Source: a virus (taxonomy: Duplodnaviria; Caudoviricetes). From it: a DNA stretch of 55,180 nucleotides. Below the pieces are notes generated by a model. That model was not told the DNA's origin. It saw nothing but the letters and a program-made list of their open reading frames with translations, and did no database searches. This document shows positions 25,128 through 55,180 of this stretch, piece by piece; within the stretch, counting starts at the first letter, position 1; the number at the start of each line of letters is the position of its first letter. A program made the translations under genes and the position numbers. The DNA lies in IMG/VR virus record IMGVR_UViG_3300036845_000183, positions 1 to 55,180 of that record, one strand, 5' to 3'.

Positions 25128-25453
25128 CCCGATTCGTCGGACACAAGACGGGCTTCAACACCACTGGCAGCAACGATTGCTGCCCGAACGAAATGGGGCC
25201 GCCCAGCACGAAGTTCGGCGGCCGACCTGCCGTGCCTGCCGGGCCGCTCAAGCGCTACCCAGGCGCCACGGCGGATATCAGCAACGGCAATCGCCGGCTC
25301 GCCAAGTCGAAGCACGGGGCCGGCGAGGGCGATGGCGTGGCCTTCAAGACGCATACGGCCTTCGGCTCGGGCGAGAAGGGTTCACCCAGCGGCCGGAAGC
25401 CCGGCGGCATGGGCGGCAAGCGCAGCCGGGACATGTCCGACAACAAGAAATAG
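25124..25453 (+). CDS. Gly/Lys-rich disordered basic protein
   Basis: ORF track, strong codon bias. Confidence 0.7.
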   Translation: MTRFVGHKTGFNTTGSNDCCPNEMGPPSTKFGGRPAVPAGPLKRYPGATADISNGNRRLAKSKHGAGEGDGVAFKTHTAFGSGEKGSPSGRKPGGMGGKRSRDMSDNKK

Positions 25454-25465
25454 CGGGAGGTTGTA

Positions 25466-25882
25466 ATATTTTACCGTCCAGGCGGCACCGCGAACGCGCC
25501 TAATCGTCAGTACGATTATGTATACGTCGATACCATCGGCGGCGCAACCGATTGGCTGCCCATCAACAAGGGCGACACGATCGCGGTGAACATCTGCCGC
25601 GCGTCGATCGCGTTTACGACGCCGGCCGCCAGCAAGGTCACGAAGTCACCCGTTGCCTACGAAGCGCTGATCTTGCTGGAAATGAAAATGTTCGGTGGCG
25701 ACAGTGATTCGGAAGCATGGCCCATCGACAACTGGTCCAATGTCGTTGTTGCCACGGACCGCCGCGCGCATCGCGCCGGCTGGGTGCGGCTGCGGCTCGT
25801 CAACGTCAACAACGCTGACGGTACGGGTGTAGCCATGGCGCTGCAAATCAGTCGGACGGGGGAATCAGGTGCAGTCACGTAA
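25466..25882 (+). CDS. Putative virion beta-sandwich protein, apparent ATA start
   Basis: GGGAGG-TTGTA-ATA; frame open for 40 codons upstream of the first GTG (25586). Confidence 0.65.
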   Translation: MFYRPGGTANAPNRQYDYVYVDTIGGATDWLPINKGDTIAVNICRASIAFTTPAASKVTKSPVAYEALILLEMKMFGGDSDSEAWPIDNWSNVVVATDRRAHRAGWVRLRLVNVNNADGTGVAMALQISRTGESGAVT

Positions 25883-26180: not shown

Positions 26181-26819
26181 ATGGCAGGCTTCGACAACGG
26201 CACGGCGCAGAGCGGTATTTTCAGCCAGGTCAAGCAATTTGGCCCGATCTTGCGCGGCTTCGGCCCACCAGTGCCGCAGGCCGGCGTCGTTGGTGACGTC
26301 TACATCGATACGCAGACTTGGTTCCTCTACACCAAGCGTTCGCCGGATGCCGGCGGTGACGTAGACCCGTGGGGGCATTACCTCTTTCAGGTGCCGGCGA
26401 CCTACCGTACGGCGCTGAAGTGGTTCACGGTCAGCCAGCCGACCGACGATATCGGCCTCACGGGTGACTACGCGCTGCTGTGGGGTGGCTATTCGAACTA
26501 CGGCCTCCAGCCCTCGATCTACGGTCCCAAGCAGCTCACGGGCTGGCCTGAGAACGGCAACGGCCCCAACGTGCCGATCGCGACGGCCGGCGCCGGTACG
26601 GTGCTTCAGATCGGCCTGGTGGACGAAGGCGCTGCGCTGCCCGACAGCGCGAGCACGCAGCTCATCGTCGTCGGGCTGGTGGACGAATACATTCTTGGCG
26701 TTCCGGTTACGGCAGCCGCCGGCAGCCCGGTAGTTCAGACCGGATTGCGATCAGGACCGGCGCAGGTTGCTGTCGTGCTCAACCCCCTATACACATCCGA
26801 AGATACCCACGCAGTCTAG
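26181..26819 (+). CDS. Tail adaptor-like protein A (G..GD.Y/..YGPK modules)
   Basis: GVVGDVYID, GLTGDY, IYGPK; paralogue of the next gene. Confidence 0.75.
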   Translation: MAGFDNGTAQSGIFSQVKQFGPILRGFGPPVPQAGVVGDVYIDTQTWFLYTKRSPDAGGDVDPWGHYLFQVPATYRTALKWFTVSQPTDDIGLTGDYALLWGGYSNYGLQPSIYGPKQLTGWPENGNGPNVPIATAGAGTVLQIGLVDEGAALPDSASTQLIVVGLVDEYILGVPVTAAAGSPVVQTGLRSGPAQVAVVLNPLYTSEDTHAV

Positions 26820-26828
26820 GAGGCGGCC

Positions 26829-27266
26829 ATTTCAGGGTTCGACAACGGCACGCTTCAGGGTGGGATCTTCGCGCAGGCGAAGCAGTTCGGTTCCGTATTG
26901 CGCGGGCTCGGGCCGCCCGTGCCGCAGGCTGGCGTGGTCGGCGACCTGTATCTGGATTCGCAGACCCGGTTCCTGTATCTGAAGCGTTCGCCCGATGCGG
27001 GTGGCGATGTCGATCCATGGGGGCACTACCTGTTTCAGGTGCCTCTGACCTATGCTGCAACGCTGAAGTGGTTCAGCGCCTCCGCACCGACAAATGATGT
27101 CGGCGTTGATGGCGACTATGCGTTGCTTTGGGGCGGATACCCGAATTACGGGCTCCAGCCCTCAATTTTCGGCCCGCGGGCGCTGGGCGTCTGGCCGTCC
27201 AGCCCGGTGAACGTCGCCGTGACCTTGAATCCTCTGTACACTTCGGAGGATAGCCACGCGCTATGA
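26829..27266 (+). CDS. Tail adaptor-like protein B, paralogue of A, apparent ATT start
   Basis: AGGAGG-CGGCC-ATT TCA GGG TTC GAC AAC aligns codon for codon with ATG GCA GGC TTC GAC AAC at 26181. Confidence 0.8.
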   Translation: MSGFDNGTLQGGIFAQAKQFGSVLRGLGPPVPQAGVVGDLYLDSQTRFLYLKRSPDAGGDVDPWGHYLFQVPLTYAATLKWFSASAPTNDVGVDGDYALLWGGYPNYGLQPSIFGPRALGVWPSSPVNVAVTLNPLYTSEDSHAL

Positions 27267-39465: not shown

Positions 39466-40206
39466 TCATACAACTTTCTTGGCTGCGGTGTCAACGACGG
39501 CTTGGCAGAAGGCAAGCATCTCGGCTTCGGGAAGTTCGTGCTTTGCCAGATTGTACCAGTTGCAGACGATTTGCACATTTCCGCGGATGTAGCCCTTCGT
39601 GCTGTCGATTCGATCAATTGAAGGTGCAAAAGGGTGCCGGCGCAGTTCTGGATGCGGTGCCAAGTCGAACAAAAAGCCGGTTCGAGGGCAAGTACCGGCG
39701 GCAACGAGAACATAGATGTCATCAAAAATGAGGTCGAACTCTCGATTTTCTTTCACTGCACGATTACGCGCGCCGTGCAGTAGCATCCCGGCGCGGCCTT
39801 GCACTGTGGCATAGCGAGCAGCGCGCCACGCTTTGTCTTGCCCCGTCTCTCGATAGCGTGCGGTCGCGGCTGCCTGAGAGGCCTTCCCTTTTTCGCTTGC
39901 GTTATACTTCGCACTGGCTCTGCTCTGTGCTGTTAGGTATTCGCGGTCTCCTTTAGCAACCTTGGCAGCGTGGCGGCGACGTTGGTATTCATTCGCACGT
40001 TCCGAATTTTTGCTTTGCCAATTTGCTGAGCGTTGTTTTGTACGTGCTTTAAAATTTGGATCTGTCGCGTACCGCTCTTTAAGTCGAGCGCTATTTTCCG
40101 CAGACTTGCAAGCTTTGCATTTTAGCTTCCACTTTGGAAAGAGCGACAGCGATTTTTCTTGGTTGCACGTACTGCAAACTTGTGTTTCTTCTACTGAATT
40201 TGACAT
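39466..40206 (-). CDS. HNH-like (His-Me finger) homing endonuclease
   Basis: CSTC..K...CKAC; PSIDRIDS.KGY..GNVQIVC..YN.AK; lower GC than flanks. Confidence 0.8.
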   Translation of the reverse strand: MSNSVEETQVCSTCNQEKSLSLFPKWKLKCKACKSAENSARLKERYATDPNFKARTKQRSANWQSKNSERANEYQRRRHAAKVAKGDREYLTAQSRASAKYNASEKGKASQAAATARYRETGQDKAWRAARYATVQGRAGMLLHGARNRAVKENREFDLIFDDIYVLVAAGTCPRTGFLFDLAPHPELRRHPFAPSIDRIDSTKGYIRGNVQIVCNWYNLAKHELPEAEMLAFCQAVVDTAAKKVV

Positions 40207-40292
40207 TTTAGCCCCCCTTTGATATTTTGCGTCATCATCGATCGCGGACACTTATTAGCATCAGGCCAGTAAGATGTCAATAGGAGGTTGTC

Positions 40293-41225
40293 ACGCAAGT
40301 CATTGACAGAAGTTTGCAGAGCTCGCAGTACTGGCCGGGTTTGTTTGCTTTGTTTGGGCTCGATTACGAAAGATTGAGTCCGATCTATACGCAGTTCTAC
40401 GACCCGAAGTCGTCAGAGAAGGCGTTTGAGGAATTCATGACAGAGCGCGCCGGCCTCGGACTCGCCGTCCAGCAACCCGAACTGGAGCCCGTGCAGTTCG
40501 ATATTCCGAACGAAGGCTACCGCACCCAGGTCACGCACGCCTCCTACGGCCTCGCCGTCGCAATCTCCCGCGAAGCGAAAGACGACAACCTCTACGAAGA
40601 CGTCGGCTCGCGCATGATGAAGGAACTGGCCTTCAGCGCGCGGCAGACCGAGGAATACATTGCTCACGCGCCGCTGAACGTAGCCGGCGATGCAGTGAAC
40701 GGCCTCCGTGCCGACAACGTCCCGCTGATCAGCGCCAGCCACCCGACCGCAACCGGCAACCAATCGAATCAGCTCATTTCGGCGAACGTATCGGAATTGG
40801 CTTTCGAGAACGCCGTCATCCAGATCAGTTACGCCCGCAATGGCCGCGGCTTCATCATCAATCTGCTGCCGAAACGTGTCATCGAATCGGTGGAAAGCGG
40901 CCCGGAAACCCGGCGTATTCTCGGTTCGCCGCTGCAGTGGAACGCGCAGACCAACAACATCAACGTGCTGCGTTCCACCGGAGCGCTGCCGGAGGTCGTC
41001 GAAACGCCGTACCTGGTCGACAAGGACAACTACTTCATCCAGACCAGCGAGCAGGACAAAGACAACGGCCAGGGCTTCACGTTCTGGGAGCGCAGCCAGC
41101 TCGAAATGCGCGAAGACAGCAACTGGGCCAACCAAGCTTCGCTCATGGCGATGTGGTTCCGGTGCTCCGTTTCGATTGTTGACTTCCGTACGGTTTTCGG
41201 TAGTTTGGGCGCTGACGGCACCTGA
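40293..41225 (+). CDS. Major capsid protein, apparent ACG start (alternative TTG at 40314)
   Basis: WPGLFALFGLDY...S.KAFEE...YGLA..IS.EA.DDNLY; AGGAGG-TTGTC-ACG; strong codon bias. Confidence 0.9.
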   Translation, partial: TQVIDRSLQSSQYWPGLFALFGLDYERLSPIYTQFYDPKSSEKAFEEFMTERAGLGLAVQQPELEPVQFDIPNEGYRTQVTHASYGLAVAISREAKDDNLYEDVGSRMMKELAFSARQTEEYIAHAPLNVAGDAVNGLRADNVPLISASHPTATGNQSNQLISANVSELAFENAVIQISYARNGRGFIINLLPKRVIESVESGPETRRILGSPLQWNAQTNNINVLRSTGALPEVVETPYLVDKDNYFIQTSEQDKDNGQGFTFWERSQLEMREDSNWANQASLMAMWFRCSVSIVDFRTVFGSLGADGT

Positions 41226-41234
41226 TGGCTCCGT

Positions 41235-41314
41235 CGCCCTACTTGGGCGTTTCCTCCCCAGACTTAGGGGCCTCCCGACTAGCAAATTGGCTGACCGGAG
41301 GCCCCTCTTTTTCT
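41235..41314 (+). terminator. Terminator after the capsid gene, preceded by a small hairpin and a TTTCCTCCC tract
   Basis: AGGGGCCTCC...GGAGGCCCCT-CTTTTTCT. Confidence 0.75.
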
Positions 41315-42193
41315 TCAGGCAGCTTTGGCCATCGGTGGCAACCAGTCGGGCGGCGCGGGCAGCTTGATATCTGGCGCCAGCCGCGCGGCCAGCGGCCGAT
41401 GAAAGTCGATGACCGACAGAAGTGCCAACCCGGCATCCGCGGCTTTCGGTCGCGGGCCGACTGAACGCGCCGCCATGTCGATACGCGGCCAACCAAGGTC
41501 CACCAGCCGGCGGCCGTGCTCCCGAATGGCCGGGTAGTGGTGCACCAGCCAGACGAAGCCCAGCGTTGCGTGCTCGGTCACCAAGGCATTCGCAGGCGCC
41601 AGTCCGGCAATCAGCTCCAGCGCGGCGTTCAGCTCGCCAAGCGGCACTGGAGCGGCCCGTTTGGCGTAACTCGGCGAGCCATGGCCGAACAGCGATTTCA
41701 GCGCTCCGATGCATGCGATCTTGGGAACTGCGAATTCTTGCTGCGCTATGTTGGCGTCCACGATCGCCAAGCCGGCCTCCTGTACCAGCCTGTTCAGCGC
41801 AATCGCTTCCGGGTCGCCGGCCGCCACTTCGGCCATGAATAGCATGCCCTGCGGAACCTTGCGGATGCGCGTGTTGCAGGCGAGGAAGATTTCGATTTCG
41901 CGTTTGCGGTCGTGCACGTCGTAAATGTCGCACGGCAGCACCTCGCGGCCAGCAATCAAGCCGCCCTCCCATCGGTGGCGACCGTCTACCACAAACAGCG
42001 CTCCGTTCGCGCGGCGCACAACCCGGAGCCGGCCGAACACGGCGAGGTCGAAATGACGGCCGATTTCACGTATCAGCCGCGGGTTGCGAGGTGCGATAGC
42101 CTGGTAGGTGGTGTCGATGTTGAGTAGCGAGGCCGGCACGTCGGCGGGCTCGGGTCGTTCTTCCAGCATCATCTCCCAGGGGAGTAAGTTCAT
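41315..42193 (-). CDS. ParB/Srx-like N-terminal domain protein (DUF6551-like)
   Basis: LNID..YQ...FD....G.L.V..R.....VVDGRHR; E..IF...N. Confidence 0.8.
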   Translation of the reverse strand: MNLLPWEMMLEERPEPADVPASLLNIDTTYQAIAPRNPRLIREIGRHFDLAVFGRLRVVRRANGALFVVDGRHRWEGGLIAGREVLPCDIYDVHDRKREIEIFLACNTRIRKVPQGMLFMAEVAAGDPEAIALNRLVQEAGLAIVDANIAQQEFAVPKIACIGALKSLFGHGSPSYAKRAAPVPLGELNAALELIAGLAPANALVTEHATLGFVWLVHHYPAIREHGRRLVDLGWPRIDMAARSVGPRPKAADAGLALLSVIDFHRPLAARLAPDIKLPAPPDWLPPMAKAA

Positions 42194-47634: not shown

Positions 47635-48138
47635 TCACCTCGTTATCGAGTACGAAAAAACGTCCTGCGGTTCGTGGCTCAGGTTCGGGAACACTTCGAA
47701 CCGTCGCAGCCGGCCCTCACGTTCTGCACCCATGCGTGACAGTACCCTTTGTACGGGCAAATTGTCAACATGGCAGTACGCCCAAACACGCCAAATGTTC
47801 GGGTGCGTGAAGATCCACGTCACGAACGGAACCGACAGTTCCCGGCCGGCGCCGCGGGCTTTCTGGGTGCGGTTGAATGCGATTGTCAGCGCGACTTGAT
47901 GGCCTTGGGCTTCCATGCCGACGATGCCTAGGAACTTCGCATCGTCCAGCACGGCCAGCCATCGCGTCGGCGACGTAGCGTAGCGCTCGATCAACGCCGA
48001 CGCCTCCGCAACGCCCCGGAGCTGCCGCAAGCCCATGTAGCGCACCGTCTGCGCATCGCCGAACAGCGCGAGCAGCTCCGGGGCGTCCCATAGATTGACG
48101 TCCCGGAGGGTAAAACGGCCAAGGGTGGCGGATGTCAC
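47635..48138 (-). CDS. GNAT N-acetyltransferase (RimJ/RimL-like)
   Basis: RGAG, RVWAYC.VDN...QRVL..MG...EG.LRR. Confidence 0.85.
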   Translation of the reverse strand: MTSATLGRFTLRDVNLWDAPELLALFGDAQTVRYMGLRQLRGVAEASALIERYATSPTRWLAVLDDAKFLGIVGMEAQGHQVALTIAFNRTQKARGAGRELSVPFVTWIFTHPNIWRVWAYCHVDNLPVQRVLSRMGAEREGRLRRFEVFPNLSHEPQDVFSYSITR

Positions 48139-48880: not shown

Positions 48881-50790
48881 TTGGACATTCTTTGCGCCGT
48901 GTAGCCCTCGCAATCCAGCGGCAACCCGGCCGTCCAGTGCCGCGGCCGGCGCATGATCGCGCGCATTTGCTCCGACCGCTCTTTCGCTACGGCTGCCGGC
49001 GCCAGGGCCAAAATCGAGTCGTACACGTCCAAGATCAACACGACGTCCGGCAGCTCGCGTTCAATGTCGGCTTCGGCGGCGGTAACCAAGTCCCTGGTAC
49101 AGCTCTGGCAAAAAATTTCCAAAAGCGAGCCGCCGAACGCCTTTTGACGAAGCATCGCGCCAAACTTCCCGCGAAAGAAGCACGCTTCGCCTTCGTGCGT
49201 AATGTGCGCCGAGTAATGCGGCACTGCGCGGCCCGAGGGTAGCAGCATCCACACGGTTCCGTGCTGATCTTTCTGAAACGCAGTTTTGCCGGCGGGGAAG
49301 ACGCGGCCTGGTTGCTCATAGATCGCAAACCTGAATGCGTCGGAAAGTTCGTACCATGCTTTCCGCAGGAGCGGATTCGCTTCGCGATACCCGTCGATAT
49401 CCGATCGGGCTTCGTTTTCGGTCATGTTCCGGCCCGCGCGGCGCTGGTGCGCCATGTACGTCTTCCAACCGAGTTGATAGTTGCCCCCCAGCGTGACTGA
49501 TTTGAAATTCTGGCGTTCGATCGGATGGGTTTTCTTAGTCGCGGTTGCTGGCAACTTCAAAATCGTTCTGGCGTTATGCATGTACAGATCGCCATCCGGC
49601 TGTGCCAGAATGCTCAAACGCTCAGTGTCGCCGGCTTGCCACAGGGCTATGAAAAGCTCCGCACTTTTCAGATCGTTGTCGCAAATCATCCAGCCTGGAG
49701 GTGCGACGATGCAGCCACGAAGCGCGTCAGTCAACGCAACGTTGCCGTACTTGAAACCCATCTTCAAACCGGCAATGACTTGTTCGGTATCGTACTTGCC
49801 AGAGGGCCGCGCGATGTTGAACATATTGGCGCCTTCGGAGGTGCCCCGACCCGATCGGGCACCGAAGTACCGCGTAGCGTCTTTGTAGAAGCCGCCGACG
49901 TGTCTATCGAGTAGTGCTTGTGCTTTGAGCGGTGCCGAACCGCCCTCTGCTTGAAGCAGTTCCAGCACGATACGAACTTCGGGCGGCATGTCTTCATCGG
50001 CGAGTGATTCGGCAATGATATGCTTTTGCGTGCTTTCCAATCGGTAGCCGCGGCTTTGGCACCACTCAGCGATGCGCTGACGCTGCGACAGTTTCGTCAC
50101 GGCGTTCTGCGTCAACTCCATTAGCTTGACGGTGCTCTCCTGTTCAATGTCCTGACGGCGTAGCGCGATCGCGGTTGCCAACTCGATATCGATCGGGAGC
50201 CCGATTTCATTCTTACGCCACGTTCGCTCAAAGATCAGGCGTTCGTCGGCCGATAGCGGCGGCAAGCGCGCGTCAAGTTCGACCAGACAGCGGACATCTT
50301 GAACGTTGTATTTGAGCAGCCCTTCGAACAGGTGAATGCGCTCGTCAAAGGTGCCGTCACGTTGCGGCCTGCATGTCGCCATGACGAGCGCACGGCCCGC
50401 AGGATCTTTGCCTTTGAGCCCAAGCACCGTGCAAACTTCATCCAGTCCGCCAGGCAGTGCGAGCGCTTGGGCGCGGCCCATTGTGCAGTCGATTTTTGAA
50501 AGTGGGATGTCGAGAAATGGATTTTGCCGTTTGATGACATTGACGTCAAAATTGGCATGGTGTGCGACGAAGCGCCGGCACGCGCGGATGTCGTCATAGA
50601 AAGCCGATATGGGGTGCGACCCGAGCTGCGGGTGTACGGTGCATGAAGTTTTGAGTTGATTTCGGAACTGCCAAACCGCGGTCGTGATCTGGGTCGAAGG
50701 GTCGGCTGCGTACCGACGCGCGCCGGCCTTTTTCAGGTCTACTCTCGATCTTGTCTCAACGTCGGCTAGCAGACTATCGGGGCATATCAT
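48877..50790 (-). CDS. polA: Family A DNA polymerase with 3'-5' exonuclease domain
   Basis: D.ETRS, AHHANFD, YNVQDV; motif A DLKSAE, motif B RQ..K...LG..Y, motif C VYDS. Confidence 0.92.
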   Translation of the reverse strand: MICPDSLLADVETRSRVDLKKAGARRYAADPSTQITTAVWQFRNQLKTSCTVHPQLGSHPISAFYDDIRACRRFVAHHANFDVNVIKRQNPFLDIPLSKIDCTMGRAQALALPGGLDEVCTVLGLKGKDPAGRALVMATCRPQRDGTFDERIHLFEGLLKYNVQDVRCLVELDARLPPLSADERLIFERTWRKNEIGLPIDIELATAIALRRQDIEQESTVKLMELTQNAVTKLSQRQRIAEWCQSRGYRLESTQKHIIAESLADEDMPPEVRIVLELLQAEGGSAPLKAQALLDRHVGGFYKDATRYFGARSGRGTSEGANMFNIARPSGKYDTEQVIAGLKMGFKYGNVALTDALRGCIVAPPGWMICDNDLKSAELFIALWQAGDTERLSILAQPDGDLYMHNARTILKLPATATKKTHPIERQNFKSVTLGGNYQLGWKTYMAHQRRAGRNMTENEARSDIDGYREANPLLRKAWYELSDAFRFAIYEQPGRVFPAGKTAFQKDQHGTVWMLLPSGRAVPHYSAHITHEGEACFFRGKFGAMLRQKAFGGSLLEIFCQSCTRDLVTAAEADIERELPDVVLILDVYDSILALAPAAVAKERSEQMRAIMRRPRHWTAGLPLDCEGYTAQRMSK

Positions 50791-51560
50791 TCAAAGCACC
50801 CACACGGTTTTTCATCGTGCGGATCATCGGCAGGAGCTGTTTTCGTGTGTAGAAAATTCTCCCACGAAAATGTGCGTCCCAAGCCTTTTACTTTTTTGGC
50901 CCCCACCAAGCCACGCCGTTCAATTTCTAAAGCGCGCTGCATCAGATCCGGGTACTCGGAAGCTAAGTCCAAAATTTCAGCTTTCCGCATGTGCGGGCAG
51001 AAGAAACACGAAGACTTACCCGGCAGCGGCAGCCGGTGCTTTAGTATCTCCACTTCGCATTCCGGGCGCCCCCACTCCCATTCGATAAGTGGGTACCGCA
51101 TCCTATATTTGCCGTCCACTACGCCAAAACGTGCACGTTGCGGCTCTCCAAAGTCGTAGCCGATTAACTTAGTTACCAACTCTCCGCGGCCCCAAACTTC
51201 GCGTAACACGGGATTATTATTGCACCACTTATTTTGCGGTTCTATCTTAAATTTCTGACTGCATGTTTTCCAACCATACGCAACTGATGGTAGCGTCCCC
51301 AACCGTAAACAATCGTCTTCTAAAGACTTCCATTGTTTATCACGTCTGGAACGATGCAGGATTGTGATCGCCGGGTAGCCTCGCCGTACTAAGTACTCGG
51401 AAAATAAGTGAAGATTCTTGTATGTTTTCGGTTTCTCTCCTCCGGTATCCGCAAAAAGGATAGCATAGGGTGCTGGCTCGTTTCGATCGAGCATGCCGAG
51501 ATACATAGCTTCGGAGTTTGTACCTCCACCGAAAGAACCTACTACAACATCTTGAGTCAT
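50787..51560 (-). CDS. PAPS-reductase-like (PP-loop) protein
   Basis: SFGGGTNS, FADTG.E, CS..FKI.P, YPL, KSSC.FCP, terminal CGC. Confidence 0.8.
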   Translation of the reverse strand: MTQDVVVGSFGGGTNSEAMYLGMLDRNEPAPYAILFADTGGEKPKTYKNLHLFSEYLVRRGYPAITILHRSRRDKQWKSLEDDCLRLGTLPSVAYGWKTCSQKFKIEPQNKWCNNNPVLREVWGRGELVTKLIGYDFGEPQRARFGVVDGKYRMRYPLIEWEWGRPECEVEILKHRLPLPGKSSCFFCPHMRKAEILDLASEYPDLMQRALEIERRGLVGAKKVKGLGRTFSWENFLHTKTAPADDPHDEKPCGCFE

Positions 51561-51638
51561 CAGTACGTCAACCCCCGTCTTGTGCGTTCCCACCATATGA
51601 AGCGATGCCAACCCCACCAGTAGGGGTTGGCAAAACTG

Positions 51639-51887: not shown

Positions 51888-52685
51888 TCAGCGCGGCGGA
51901 AACGGCTGACCGCTAAAAGGGGATGTCGCATTCCCAGGACTTGTGGATGGCGCTCCAAACGGGGCCGGGGCATTTTGGAAAGCAGGTCCTGATGTTGTCC
52001 CTGGAGCCGTCGTACCGAATGAAGCCGGGGCAAACCCCTGGGGCAGGCTTAGACCCGGCTGCTGAAAACCCGGCGCCCCCTGCGGCTGAAAACCTGGCGA
52101 CCCGGAGAACCCCGCCACCTGCAGACCCTGCTTCTGTGCTTGCTGCATCAGTTCAGCGCCGGACACTGAGTTGGCGAATACGATCTCCTCGCCGGGTGCC
52201 GAGAACACGACGGCATTGAGATACAACTTCGCAGCTCGGTTGTTCTGCTGGCTGACGGCTGCGGTGCCGCCGACCATACAGTAGTCGCCGGATTTCACGC
52301 CGACCTTGTTCTGAAGCTTTACGAGCGCACCGCCAGCCTGAACGATTTCGACGTTCGGCGGGCTTTCGGTGGACGCGTTGAACAACCAGTGGCCCTTGGC
52401 GAACTCGGACGACTTGCCGTCCGCGCTCGGCAGATCGCCGTCCTGAATGCGCCAATCCGTGATCTGCGGGTTGTTGGCGTGCAGCTTCATCAGTGCCGCC
52501 GTCAAGCCGGCGAGCGCCGGTTCGGCATGCCATTGCGCCTGCGTCTTCGGGGTGATGAAGCCGGCGAAGTAGTTGGGCTTTTTCTGCTCCTGCCCTTTGT
52601 AGTTCGTGCTCGGTGACCAAAGGTGTCGCATGTCCACGATGCGAACGTTGAACAGGGTGAACGGTTCATACTGTCTGTTAGCCAT
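51888..52685 (-). CDS. ssDNA-binding protein (DUF2815 / gp2.5-like)
   Basis: IQDGD, GHW..NAS...P, SG.Y, LYLN.V.F...GE; disordered Pro/Gly/Phe tail; near polA. Confidence 0.8.
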   Translation of the reverse strand: MANRQYEPFTLFNVRIVDMRHLWSPSTNYKGQEQKKPNYFAGFITPKTQAQWHAEPALAGLTAALMKLHANNPQITDWRIQDGDLPSADGKSSEFAKGHWLFNASTESPPNVEIVQAGGALVKLQNKVGVKSGDYCMVGGTAAVSQQNNRAAKLYLNAVVFSAPGEEIVFANSVSGAELMQQAQKQGLQVAGFSGSPGFQPQGAPGFQQPGLSLPQGFAPASFGTTAPGTTSGPAFQNAPAPFGAPSTSPGNATSPFSGQPFPPR

Positions 52686-52734
52686 TTTCAGTTGCTCACT
52701 TTTTCAATTTGCCGGGTCCGCCGGCAGCGGTAAA

Positions 52735-53046
52735 TTAGTCAACTACATCTATACCATACTGTAAAATGGAAAGGCCGCAGTTATCTGCGAGCCCGCGTTC
52801 CGTTGTGGCTCCTTTCGAAGCCGGCCAACCCGGCAGCAAAACAATCGTGCAAGCTTCTTCGCAGATGAACTTCGCGTACTCTGCAAACGCCTTGCGTATC
52901 GGAAACTTTCCCGGCCCATATGCGAACTCAGCGGGGTTGTAAACGACGTGGCCGGCACCGCGCAGCTCCGCAGCGACGCGGTGGAATAGTGGGTAGTTTG
53001 ATTCCGGGTACCCTCTCATGGGTCCGCTGAGGTATATCTTCCGCAT
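52735..53046 (-). CDS. DUF4406 / nucleoside 2-deoxyribosyltransferase-like protein
   Basis: IYLSGPM.G....N...F, NPAE, LPGW..SKGA..E. Confidence 0.85.
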   Translation of the reverse strand: MRKIYLSGPMRGYPESNYPLFHRVAAELRGAGHVVYNPAEFAYGPGKFPIRKAFAEYAKFICEEACTIVLLPGWPASKGATTERGLADNCGLSILQYGIDVVD

Positions 53047-53979
53047 TCAATACGACGCCTTGAGCGTCCCTTCTGGTTTGTGTGCGCCGACAGCGGCGTA
53101 CATCTTACCTTCCGTGCCTAGCTTTTCAGCCTGGGCTGGCGAGACGGGTTTGACACCTTTGGCGCCGTACTGCGTATATAGATGCAGTGCAGCTTGGGTG
53201 TCGTCGTTCCACGCGCGGTAGCTTCGGCCCGTCTTCGGCGGGTCGCCGTGACCGAGCTTTTGATGCACGAGCAGCGCTTCCTCATAAACTGGCTTGACGT
53301 CGCCCAGCGCGCGAATCAGTCGCAGCAGCCGCTGCAATTCGTCGTGGGTTAGGTCTTCCGGCCGGCGCGTGATGGCGCCCATGACAAAACCGGCATCAGT
53401 CGACATCGCCGGGCAGGCCTGAAACGCTTTGCACCAGCGGCACCACGGGCCTGGCTTCGGCGCGCTGCGATCGGCGATGGCGCGAAGCACGCGGGCTTTG
53501 TGCGCTTCGACCTCGCTGCGGTGGTGTACCCATTGTTTCCAAGGGTCCTCGTCCAGGCCGTTCGGCTGATAGATGACGAAACGCCACCATTCCGCGTCGT
53601 TCTGATCAAGCAAGCATGCGGCATAGGTCATGAGCTGCAAGTTATGCTTTGCCGGAACGTCCCACTTGCCGAACTTGCCATCAAGAACGGTTGCCACGTT
53701 GCGGTAGATCGGGTCGTTAAAAACGTCGACCGTACCCCCACAGTCGTCCGCCAACTTCACACGTAGTTCTCTGCGGATGTCCCCGTCTTCAAGCTGCGCC
53801 AGAAACGCTTCAACCTCCGGAATGCCGCCGGCTTCCATAACGCCATGCCGCGCCGTACCGGCATCGGCCGCCGCGATCGTCTCGGCTTTCTTCGGCGCAT
53901 CAGGTACGGCATTCAAGGCCGACCACGGGCATTCGATCCATGTCGCGGTAGACGATGCATTGAAAACGTCGTGGCTCAT
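53047..53979 (-). CDS. Cas4-like exonuclease (DUF2800-like), allele 2
   Basis: Homologous to 662-1609 with indels. Confidence 0.85.
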   Translation of the reverse strand: MSHDVFNASSTATWIECPWSALNAVPDAPKKAETIAAADAGTARHGVMEAGGIPEVEAFLAQLEDGDIRRELRVKLADDCGGTVDVFNDPIYRNVATVLDGKFGKWDVPAKHNLQLMTYAACLLDQNDAEWWRFVIYQPNGLDEDPWKQWVHHRSEVEAHKARVLRAIADRSAPKPGPWCRWCKAFQACPAMSTDAGFVMGAITRRPEDLTHDELQRLLRLIRALGDVKPVYEEALLVHQKLGHGDPPKTGRSYRAWNDDTQAALHLYTQYGAKGVKPVSPAQAEKLGTEGKMYAAVGAHKPEGTLKASY

Positions 53980-54179
53980 TCGCCGGCTCTCGTCATGGAC
54001 CTGTGCCAGTCGCTCAGCAACCGGCTGTACTTGTTCCCGTTTTCCGTGTTTTCGTATACGATGTTGATAGGATACTTCAGGCGGTCGCCGGGTTCATTTG
54101 TGAACATGATGACGCGGTACTCGCATCCGTTCCGGTGTCGCCAAATCGATCCGATCGCAGGTTTTTCGGTGTCAGCCAT
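53976..54179 (-). CDS. DUF1653-like small protein (absent from the left copy)
   Basis: GS.WRH.NG..Y.V......VYE......YSR.L..W. Confidence 0.65.
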   Translation of the reverse strand: MADTEKPAIGSIWRHRNGCEYRVIMFTNEPGDRLKYPINIVYENTENGNKYSRLLSDWHRSMTRAGE

Positions 54180-54366
54180 TCGGCTTGCTCCGGCGCAACC
54201 CATCCGTGCCATGGTCGCGTGCGTAGCAGGCCGCCTCGTAGCCCGGCGCGCATGCCACCAATGGCGCTACCTGTGTCTGGCAGTAATTGATGGCCTCAAT
54301 CTGCCTGGGCGTGATCGGCCCCTGGATAACCAGGGTCAAAAGAACGGAACAAAAAGCTGAGTCCAT
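54172..54366 (-). CDS. Hypothetical small protein, allele 2 of 1748-1942
   Basis: AGGAG SD; near-identical protein. Confidence 0.7.
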   Translation of the reverse strand: MDSAFCSVLLTLVIQGPITPRQIEAINYCQTQVAPLVACAPGYEAACYARDHGTDGLRRSKPNG

Positions 54367-54455
54367 GGTGTTCTCCTGTTGAAAATTCGGGAGCCGACTA
54401 AGGCGCGGTGTACGAACCTACTTCCGCTCGCCGGCTCCCTACCCTGCAGGGGTTA

Positions 54456-54923
54456 CTATCGCAAGCCCATCAACTTGGCGATGCCTTCGAGCGCCGGCAT
54501 CGGAAGCTTGGGCAGGAAATGGCCTTTGATTTGGTCCATCGTGGCCGCCGAAGCGTCGAAACCGTGTTTGCCGATCTCGGTTCGGAACCATGCGAGCGCC
54601 GGTTCTGCGGGCGACCCGCCGGCGATCGTCGAATCAAGCTTGGCTGCGACTTCATTGACAACCTTCATGATTTCCTGTGCCAAGCCGGCGGGCGCTGTGC
54701 TGGGGAACGCGCCGCCTTGCGGAAACGTCGTGCTGGTGGCCTGCGGATTGAACTGCGTTGCGGTCGGTATCGCCATCGGCGCGGGCACGTTCACGGTTGC
54801 CGTGGTGTGCTGGGGCGGCGTCGCTGTCTGTTCGTCGTCGCCTTTCTTCGTCCGCGTCTTCTTGCCGCTGGTCTTGAAGGCTTCGAACTCGTCTTCGTTG
54901 TCAAATTCGACAGTGATTCGCAT
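54456..54923 (-). CDS. Hypothetical protein, allele 2 of 2021-2470
   Basis: Shared C-terminus DASAATMDQIK.HFLPKL.MPALEGIAKLMG. Confidence 0.8.
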   Translation of the reverse strand: MRITVEFDNEDEFEAFKTSGKKTRTKKGDDEQTATPPQHTTATVNVPAPMAIPTATQFNPQATSTTFPQGGAFPSTAPAGLAQEIMKVVNEVAAKLDSTIAGGSPAEPALAWFRTEIGKHGFDASAATMDQIKGHFLPKLPMPALEGIAKLMGLR

Positions 54924-54980
54924 GCTCGGTTCCTTGTTTGAGATGTTTTGTCTTACACTAAATCCGTACAGTGTCAATTA

Positions 54981-55180
54981 CTATTCTTTGTAGTCCGAAA
55001 GGTTGAGAGGAACTAGAACCCGTTCGAAAAATTTTATCGTGCCCCACTCAGGGCACAAGCGCTCCGACAGCTCTTTGCTTCTATTGCACTGTGGGTGCCC
55101 GTATCCTTCGCCATAGAAAACTAGCCCTTTTTCAGGGTGGACCACCCACCAGCTATCCAGGTACTGATGCAGGTATGGGC
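54981..55180 (-). CDS. Partial copy of 2529-2801
   Basis: Near-identical DNA; cut by the window edge. Confidence 0.75.
   Translation of the reverse strand, partial: PYLHQYLDSWWVVHPEKGLVFYGEGYGHPQCNRSKELSERLCPEWGTIKFFERVLVPLNLSDYKE

Follow-up and report, generated by a model that had tools for sequence, protein, structure and literature searches.

A near-cognate ACG codon behind a strong Shine-Dalgarno sequence as the probable start of a phage major capsid gene

Where does translation of the major capsid gene of this soil phage begin, and how can an abundant protein be made from the codon found there? The reading frame is closed by a stop just upstream of an ACG, and an ACG start is unexpected for a highly abundant structural protein. 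The analysis was based on the complete IMG/VR record of the virus (55,180 bases; CheckV 100%), and this whole stretch is called the window in the following. The features around the start site were as follows:

40281..40283, plus strand: in-frame stop TAG, 4 codons 5' of the start, part of TAGGAGG (read from the sequence)
40282..40288, plus strand: Shine-Dalgarno sequence (SD) AGGAGGT, 4–5 nt 5' of the start codon (sequence and duplex energy)
40293..40295, plus strand: ACG, probable capsid initiation codon (homologous codon in relatives; purifying selection on codons 2–8)
40293..41225, plus strand: coding sequence of the major capsid protein, 310 codons plus stop, PF25209, length as in most relatives
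40314..40316, plus strand: TTG, the expected pick of a standard gene caller, rejected as the start (no SD; present in 5 of 18 near-cognate variants)

The letters after the TAG read GAG GTT GTC ACG CAA GTC ATT GAC AGA AGT TTG, and the TTG at 40314 is the first in-frame ATG, GTG or TTG. GGAGG (40283–40287) and the spacer TTGTC (40288–40292) place the SD 5 nt from the ACG at 40293. The capsid SD formed a duplex of -10.9 kcal/mol with ACCUCCUUA, which we take to be the anti-SD sequence here and in all duplex energies below, and from which the host's 16S rRNA may differ. A preliminary description of this DNA had proposed the ACG as the start, with the TAG at 40281, GGAGG, TTGTC and ACG in this order and no SD at the TTG; its coordinates and letters were correct.

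The capsid frame matched the Pfam family PF25209 (Phage_capsid_4) with 35.7 bits (cutoff 27, E 1.5e-8). By tblastn, at least 80% of the query was covered in 20 of 20 phage records, and 13 of the 20 matches coincided with an annotated capsid or head protein gene. The PHROGs contained no family for the protein, and a PDB sequence search with it gave no relative. The N-terminal pattern that the preliminary description had given for this capsid family fitted the actual one, MQVIDRSLQPSQYWPGLYALFGLDY, only roughly.

A protein search gave 80 capsid relatives, mostly 308–310 aa long, whose first residues MQVIDRSLQ aligned exactly with the window's ACG. Some were recorded as LQVIDRS or VQVIDRS, and one (P0027) read through from upstream with a T at the start position. 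The DNA of the relatives was taken from viral contigs and metagenome contigs. Two of the 80 fetched loci were cut by contig ends and three were re-anchored, leaving 78 to be counted: the homologous start codon was ATG in 35, GTG in 18, TTG in 13, ATT in 11 and ACG in one. All loci, including those of a metagenome scan, were then pooled and dereplicated to 90 distinct 105-nt start regions; one pattern match (L184, codon CCT) was dropped as apparently unrelated. ATG was found in 38 of these regions, TTG in 19, GTG in 15, ATT in 14 and ACG in four. The relatives were not uniformly ATG, and their homologous codon for M, V, L or I lay exactly at the proposed start. Apart from the window, ACG was seen in three further distinct sequences from other records (L084, which equals L007; L118; L187).

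ATT and ACG differ from AUG by one mismatch and are called near-cognate here. Codons 2–8 read Q(V/I)IDRSL in all 18 ATT/ACG variants, while the DNA was free at synonymous sites and included six-fold switches in Ser (AGY/TCN), Arg (CGN/AGR) and Leu (CTN/TTR). In these variants, codons 2–8 show purifying selection and are translated. The TTG at codon 8 was missing in 13 of the 18 variants, and six had no canonical start at all in the first 20 codons. Conservation through synonymous change, together with the absence of the TTG from most variants, argues for initiation at the near-cognate codon, and translation of the window's capsid gene very probably starts at ACG 40293.

The ACG is no sequencing error: a second assembly agrees with it, and ACG occurs in four distinct sequences. 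The Logan contigs of run X1 covered 39900–40532 with 0 differences at a word depth of 41.5; as X1 is possibly the source sample, this comparison tests the assembler rather than the sample and is not fully independent.

The start codon was very labile on the capsid protein tree (66 rows). ACG needed two changes and ATT eight, of which well-supported branches forced at least six; the window and L007, both with ACG, were not sisters. The capsid protein of one relative (L001) was identical to the window's, yet its start was GTG.

Start codon and SD were traded against each other. GGAGG was present in positions -20 to -1 of 0 of 38 ATG, 1 of 15 GTG, 5 of 19 TTG, 14 of 14 ATT and 2 of 4 ACG regions, with a spacing of 5 nt in all 14 ATT variants; the other two ACG variants had GGAGAG at 7 nt. 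This corresponds to 16 of 18 near-cognate against 6 of 72 canonical regions (Fisher p 4.5e-11), and ATG combined with GGAGG never occurred at the capsid gene among the 90 regions. The mean duplex energies with the assumed anti-SD were -6.5 kcal/mol for ATG, -7.5 for GTG, -7.75 for TTG, -10.5 for ATT and -9.6 for ACG. In eight phylogenetically independent near-cognate/canonical pairs, GGAGG was concordant in 7.8 on average and opposite in none (sign test p 0.0078). Among 10 independent ATG/non-ATG pairs, GGAG was opposite in 8.3 and in the same direction in none. SD and codon are 5 nt apart and co-inherited, and many near-cognate variants have upstream sequence in common (GGCCAGTAAG..TGTCAA). 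Recombination of one allele could therefore mimic independence and inflate the count of 'independent' codon/SD events.

The surroundings of the start site were inspected as well. The capsid gene is alone on its strand; a 647-aa ORF upstream (no family matches) and a ParB-like gene downstream lie on the opposite strand. The following features were found near the gene:

39466..40251, minus strand: HNH / endonuclease VII-like gene (phrog_3322, E 2.1e-29), inserted, with the 647-aa ORF on one side and the capsid gene on the other
40200..40228, plus strand: candidate sigma-70-like promoter of a monocistronic capsid transcript, TTGACA-17-TATTTT with TG (consensus match only)
40264..40271, plus strand: GGCCAGTA, 5' arm of a tentative 8-bp helix, paired with 40329–40336 in the centroid fold
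40329..40336, plus strand: TACTGGCC, 3' arm of the tentative helix, codons Tyr13-Trp14-Pro15 (centroid fold)

Among 62 distinct regions upstream of the capsid gene, 11 contained the HNH gene. Near-cognate starts were found in 6 of the 11 regions with it versus 5 of the 51 without it (Fisher p 0.0023, not corrected for relatedness). Co-conversion beside a mobile endonuclease could be one way in which the near-cognate allele spreads. The promoter candidate matched at 10 of 12 positions, and two promoter-like sites were found against 0.5 expected in shuffles.

The 8-bp helix is only a lead, because the sequence set was chosen for having the motif. In the 21 motif-bearing sequences, the pair of columns 25 and 90 was GC in 11, GU in six, AU in four and unpaired in none, and the covariation score of this selected set was reached by 16 of 500 shuffles. 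An outward extension of the helix was rejected, since its pairing, seen in six of 21 rows, did not exceed chance. The fold of 40236–40345 was not exceptional (z-score 0.25).

Two further sites of the window had the same arrangement as the capsid gene:

25456..25468, plus strand: initiation region of gene A, GGAGG + TTGTA + ATA, at the relatives' start codon; coding sequence 25466–25882, 138 aa
26817..26831, plus strand: initiation region of gene B2, TAGGAGG + CGGCC + ATT, from relatives and paralog; coding sequence 26829–27266, 145 aa

At gene A, GGAGG (25456–25460, within GGGAGG) precedes the ATA at 25466, the frame opens four codons upstream, and the stop codon TAG of the upstream gene (25451–25453) lies just 5' of the SD. 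Seven gene A relatives from viral contigs begin M/V/L-FYRPGG at the ATA codon, four with ATG, two with GTG and one with TTG. At gene B2, GGAGG (26819–26823) precedes the ATT at 26829, the frame opens three codons upstream, and the TAG of TAGGAGG is the stop codon of the tandem paralog B1 (26181–26819). B1 begins ATG-AGFDNGT and the B2 relatives begin M/V-SGFDNGT; ATT or ATC behind GGAGG was also found at B2 in G003, G009, G010 and G014. Hence the alignment with relatives, which begin at the same codons, confirmed ATA 25466 and ATT 26829 as the putative starts of two further genes, as the preliminary description had proposed.

ACG 40293, ATA 25466 and ATT 26829 each have one mismatch to AUG, and all three stand 5 nt behind GGAGG with duplex energies of -10.2 to -11.0 kcal/mol under the assumed anti-SD. 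Relatives start canonically at the same codons, and no canonical alternative is conserved. With the same anti-SD, the near-cognate starts of genes A and B2 had -10.2 to -11.0 kcal/mol, and the ATG starts of B2 had -1.9 to -4.1 kcal/mol in seven of eight genomes. As judged from these energies, the codon/SD trade also holds in families A and B2.

The window contained no other GGAGG site with a near-cognate codon at 5 nt heading a long frame opened 3–4 codons upstream. The scan was extended to 19 genomes (the window and 18 complete or near-complete relatives) for GGAGG, a spacer of 4–8 nt and a codon heading a frame of at least 80 codons. Of the sites found, 10 had a canonical and 19 a near-cognate codon, and 53 lacked any start-like codon in range. 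The spacing was 5 nt in 13 of the 19 near-cognate sites, and all 13 belonged to the capsid, gene A and gene B2 families:

Capsid gene, 5-nt spacing: ACG in the window (G000); ATT in G015–G018
Gene A, 5-nt spacing: ATA in the window (G000); ATT in G004 and G012
Gene B2, 5-nt spacing: ATT in the window (G000); ATC in G003; ATT in G009 and G010; ATC in G014

The remaining six sites had other spacings, and in at least four of them a canonical start follows within a few codons, in two of these after no more than two; these six look like chance. The three near-cognate starts occurred together in the window only, and 10 other genomes had one each. All three genes had been called structural in the preliminary description. 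This is correct for the capsid gene; genes A and B are placed within the virion-gene block and had no PHROG or Pfam match. The predicted model of gene A (pLDDT 85.9) showed a beta-sandwich, and the tail, tail-fibre and carbohydrate-binding domains that matched it did so only weakly (TM ≤0.54); the atlas leads for genes A and B were below 0.9 for named clusters.

How could the capsid gene function with such a codon? Plain codon/SD compensation is the simplest reading of the pattern, and it is likely that the ACG start with its perfect SD represents one of two balanced designs that selection on the initiation rate maintains. The initiator fMet-tRNA would pair with two of the three bases of ACG, while the 30S complex would be held by the 7-nt perfect SD AGGAGGT at the optimal 5-nt spacing. 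The capsid protein would begin with Met-Gln-Val-Ile-Asp, as in the relatives. In one design, the strong codon ATG would go with an SD that is weak or missing; in the other, a near-cognate ATT, ATC, ATA or ACG would stand 5 nt behind GGAGG. The two would be interchangeable, with GTG and TTG intermediate between them. Selection would keep the initiation rate in a range, a change in one element being offset by the other. The second design would also be used at the virion-block genes A (ATA 25466) and B2 (ATT 26829).

Compensation of a weak codon by a strong SD is already known and is extended here to genes of a phage virion region. According to Belinky et al. (PMC5622118), non-AUG starts in prokaryotes go with stronger SDs and AUG starts with weaker ones. 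The effects described there are weak, concern AUG, GUG and UUG genome-wide, and come from data in which near-cognate codons are almost absent. In contrast, the trade observed here is nearly all-or-none, extends to ATT, ATC, ATA and ACG and centres on three orthologous phage genes. A nearly all-or-none trade inside one orthologous gene was unexpected.

A comparable single gene is sigR of Streptomyces, whose GTC start is described as lying behind the extensive ribosome-binding site AGGAGGTG, the authors tying the strong site to the weak codon (PMC5472188). As in the capsid gene, a non-canonical start is combined with an unusually long SD (AGGAGGTG versus AGGAGGT). However, sigR encodes a low-abundance regulator and its GTC is conserved and functionally required, whereas the capsid protein is very abundant and its weak codon is optional. 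Searches of open-access papers and bioRxiv yielded no phage capsid gene described with a natural ACG or ATT start.

That near-cognate codons can initiate was reported by Hecht et al. from E. coli reporters with all 64 codons (bioRxiv 10.1101/063800). There, AUA, AUC, AUU and CUG gave 1–2% of AUG and the other 57 codons, including ACG, 0.1–1%; an ACG-start protein carried an N-terminal Met by mass spectrometry. Those reporters were engineered and reached about 0.1–2% of AUG, whereas the natural genes described here appear reliant on such codons. This also marks the weak side of the compensation reading: a better SD may not recover a loss of at least hundredfold for the most abundant virion protein. 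Moreover, the near-cognate frequency of 18 of 90 hints at something more than neutral compensation, and the confinement of the design to three gene families is not accounted for by a general rate-balancing rule. The depth of the codon handicap and this frequency are unusual, though compensation is a known principle.

A regulatory role of the weak codon is unlikely, although several observations speak for it. The near-cognate codon would be sensitive to IF3, keep the virion genes low early and bring them up when IF3 is limiting or inhibited late in infection, and the SD would steepen the switch. As described in PMC5472188, IF3 represses non-canonical starts, and infC (ATT) and sigR (GTC) exploit this repression for control. 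The AUU of infC in E. coli and other bacteria resembles the present sites in the one-mismatch codon, the initiator tRNA and the discrimination by IF3 (PMC5472188). However, the product of infC is IF3 itself, which autoregulates, whereas here the products are virion proteins (for the capsid gene, a PF25209 protein), the codon varies between close relatives and there is no sign of feedback. The design recurs in 11 of the 19 genomes, only in three families of virion-block genes, and the at least six changes on the capsid tree stand against a rarity of such switches in bacteria, given for AUG to AUU as only one among 61,358 ancestral AUG starts (PMC5622118). ACG is very weak in E. coli (10.1101/063800), so that help late in infection would make sense.

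Several results speak against such gating. Most relatives serve the same genes with ATG, GTG or TTG and weaker SDs; therefore, the weak start is not needed for the life cycle. Moreover, the three genes switch independently within and among genomes, so that the proposed genome-specific fidelity-relaxing factor is unlikely. The window had 0 tRNA genes, hence none to read ACG or AUU, and its PHROG matches included no translation factor. One gene had been named as a candidate modifier of fidelity:

47635..48138, minus strand: GNAT acetyltransferase (PF13302, E 5.1e-16)

Twelve of 20 relatives had this gene, irrespective of their start-codon type. It was absent from G016 and G018 (ATT capsid), G004 (ATT gene A) and G010 (ATT gene B2) and present in the ATG-capsid genomes G001–G003. 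With four near-cognate genomes lacking it, the GNAT gene was rejected as a requirement for near-cognate starts. A trait of the shared host, or a useful but dispensable IF3-dependent timing, is possible.

A more elaborate reading, to which we attach little probability, would make TAGGAGG + 5 nt + AUU/AUC/AUA/ACG a dedicated class evolved by this phage group for a few virion genes, a switch that senses the initiation state of the host (the availability of IF3 or of free anti-SD). The tentative helix between the 5'UTR and codon 13, which surrounds the start site, and an mmgR-like anti-SD RNA derived from the 3' end of the capsid transcript would then belong to the same circuit.

Re-initiation or translational coupling is very improbable. 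Ribosomes terminating just upstream, at the TAG of the previous gene (A, B2) or at the TGA of a short upstream ORF (capsid gene, ATG 40274 to TGA 40304–40306), would be handed by the SD to the near-cognate codon, and codon discrimination would matter less. The stop of the upstream gene does lie 9–12 nt 5' of the start at A (TAG 25451) and B2 (TAG 26817, overlapping the SD). At the capsid gene, 12 of 18 near-cognate versus 6 of 72 canonical variants have an in-frame stop at most five codons upstream; however, such a TAG is an automatic consequence of TAGGAGG with 5-nt spacing. The 10-codon ORF from ATG 40274 spans the SD and the ACG in the window and in L084, but no same-strand gene precedes the capsid gene and the short ORF has no SD of its own. 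It was rejected, since it is not conserved in the relatives, which can have TTG or GTG in place of its ATG or no start at all, and whose ORF ends lie between a point before the start codon and +68.

A start at TTG 40314, with a capsid protein seven residues shorter, or an ACG due to a sequencing error or a defective variant is hardly credible: gene callers do pick such downstream starts (12 of 80 capsid protein records are 2–24 residues short at the N-terminus), but the TTG has neither an SD nor a place in most variants, and four ACG and 14 ATT distinct sequences come from many records.

Compensation as the likely explanation has consequences for annotation. Standard gene callers cannot call ATT, ATC, ATA or ACG starts. 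This blindness accounts for the short capsid records and for the window's gene A, which is stored as 98 aa (P0168) instead of 138. GGAGG + 5 nt + a near-cognate codon heading a conserved frame is a simple signature with which more such genes could be sought. Moreover, ATG, GTG, TTG, ATT and ACG, each with its own SD, form a natural allelic series that can gauge the combination of codon and SD and can serve to ask whether phages exploit IF3 fidelity.

A separate observation concerned the region directly 3' of the capsid stop, where an mmgR/suhB-like small RNA (RF00519) was found at 41229..41319 on the plus strand. The match reached 54.4 bits (gathering score 41) over the full model (1–77) and included the anti-SD motif UUUCCUCCCC in single-stranded form; a terminator-like hairpin follows. 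Of 40 relatives searched, 15 had an RF00519 match in the same position (41.6–64.2 bits), and the RNA was unrelated to the start-codon type. Pairing with the three initiation regions was rejected: a duplex scan across the window ranked 2025 sites, and none of the three was among the best 25. Among the open-access and bioRxiv papers listed by a search, none concerned a phage-borne mmgR by title or abstract. MmgR is described as an Hfq-dependent small RNA of alpha-rhizobia with an anti-SD motif (PMC7143759).

Regarding the host, genome_contigs contained no capsid relative and the phage collection gave no DNA match. One gene B relative carried the label of a Planctomycetota MAG, whereas the mmgR-like RNA would suggest a host among the Alphaproteobacteria.

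The capsid protein encoded at L001:1501-2430, the DNA locus of a capsid relative, was identical to that of the window across 309 residues. The DNA identity of the two capsid genes was only ~90%, and the L001 gene started with GTG, preceded by TAGGAG. The same protein with diverged DNA and another start region indicates that the capsid protein is under very strong purifying selection and that the initiation region is free-running.

Features flanking the capsid start and stop
39466-40251, minus strand: HNH/endonuclease VII-like gene, inserted between the capsid gene and an opposite-strand 647-aa ORF upstream
40264-40271 with 40329-40336: 8-bp complementarity of GGCCAGTA (5' leader) with TACTGGCC (capsid codons 13-15)
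40274-40306, plus strand: 10-codon ORF (ATG to TGA), in another frame than the capsid gene, spanning the SD and the ACG start
41229-41319, plus strand: suhB/mmgR-like small RNA (Rfam RF00519; 54.4 bits, gathering score 41)

Of the 62 distinct regions compared upstream of the capsid gene, 11 contained the HNH gene. Near-cognate starts (ATT, ATC, ATA or ACG) were enriched beside it: 6 of the 11 regions with the gene had one, compared with 5 of the 51 without. This distribution and the enrichment suggest that the HNH gene is a mobile element, its flanks carrying the initiation-region allele.

One pair of the complementarity between leader and codons 13-15 covaried (GC in 11, GU in 6 and AU in 4 of 21 sequences). 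The exact 8-mer complement was found in 0 of the 38 ATG-class variants. The counterparts of the 10-codon ORF in relatives started with ATG, TTG or GTG, and their end position varied; some short ORFs ended 1 nt upstream of the capsid start codon.

The RF00519-like RNA begins 3 nt past the capsid stop codon. An anti-SD motif, UUUCCUCCCC, forms part of it, as does a hairpin resembling a terminator. A match at the equivalent position was found in 15 of 40 relatives. It is a phage-borne version of a regulator of Alphaproteobacteria and doubles as a clue to host identity.

Where the real start was near-cognate, the stored proteins of relatives were N-terminally truncated. Short capsid records accounted for 12 of 80 (P0021, P0022, P0029, P0046, P0052, P0056, P0058, P0060-P0063 and P0065). 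Likewise, P0168, the record of the window's ATA-start gene at 25466-25882, was stored with 98 aa (138 expected).

Tandem paralogs
26181-27266, plus strand: B1 (212 aa) and B2 (145 aa, ATT start), with a common N-terminal (A/S)GFDNGT domain

A family search with B1/B2 gave no match. In relatives, this N-terminal head was found on proteins of 209-300 aa, and B1/B2 look like modular tail-fibre-type proteins.

In a self-comparison, the window ends (1-2728 and 52520-55180) were diverged duplicates of a single region.

End repeats
1-212 and 52520-52731: 98% match
661-1609 and 53046-53979: 78.6% match
1748-2728 and 54172-55180: 78.5% match

The contig probably wraps round a ~52.5 kb genome, with two strains joined. 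The diverged copies account for the two exonuclease genes.

Genes adjoining the DNA polymerase
50790-51617, minus strand: PAPS-reductase-like gene (phrog_424)
52738-53046, minus strand: nucleoside 2-deoxyribosyltransferase-like gene (phrog_355)

This pair may form a DNA-modification module.
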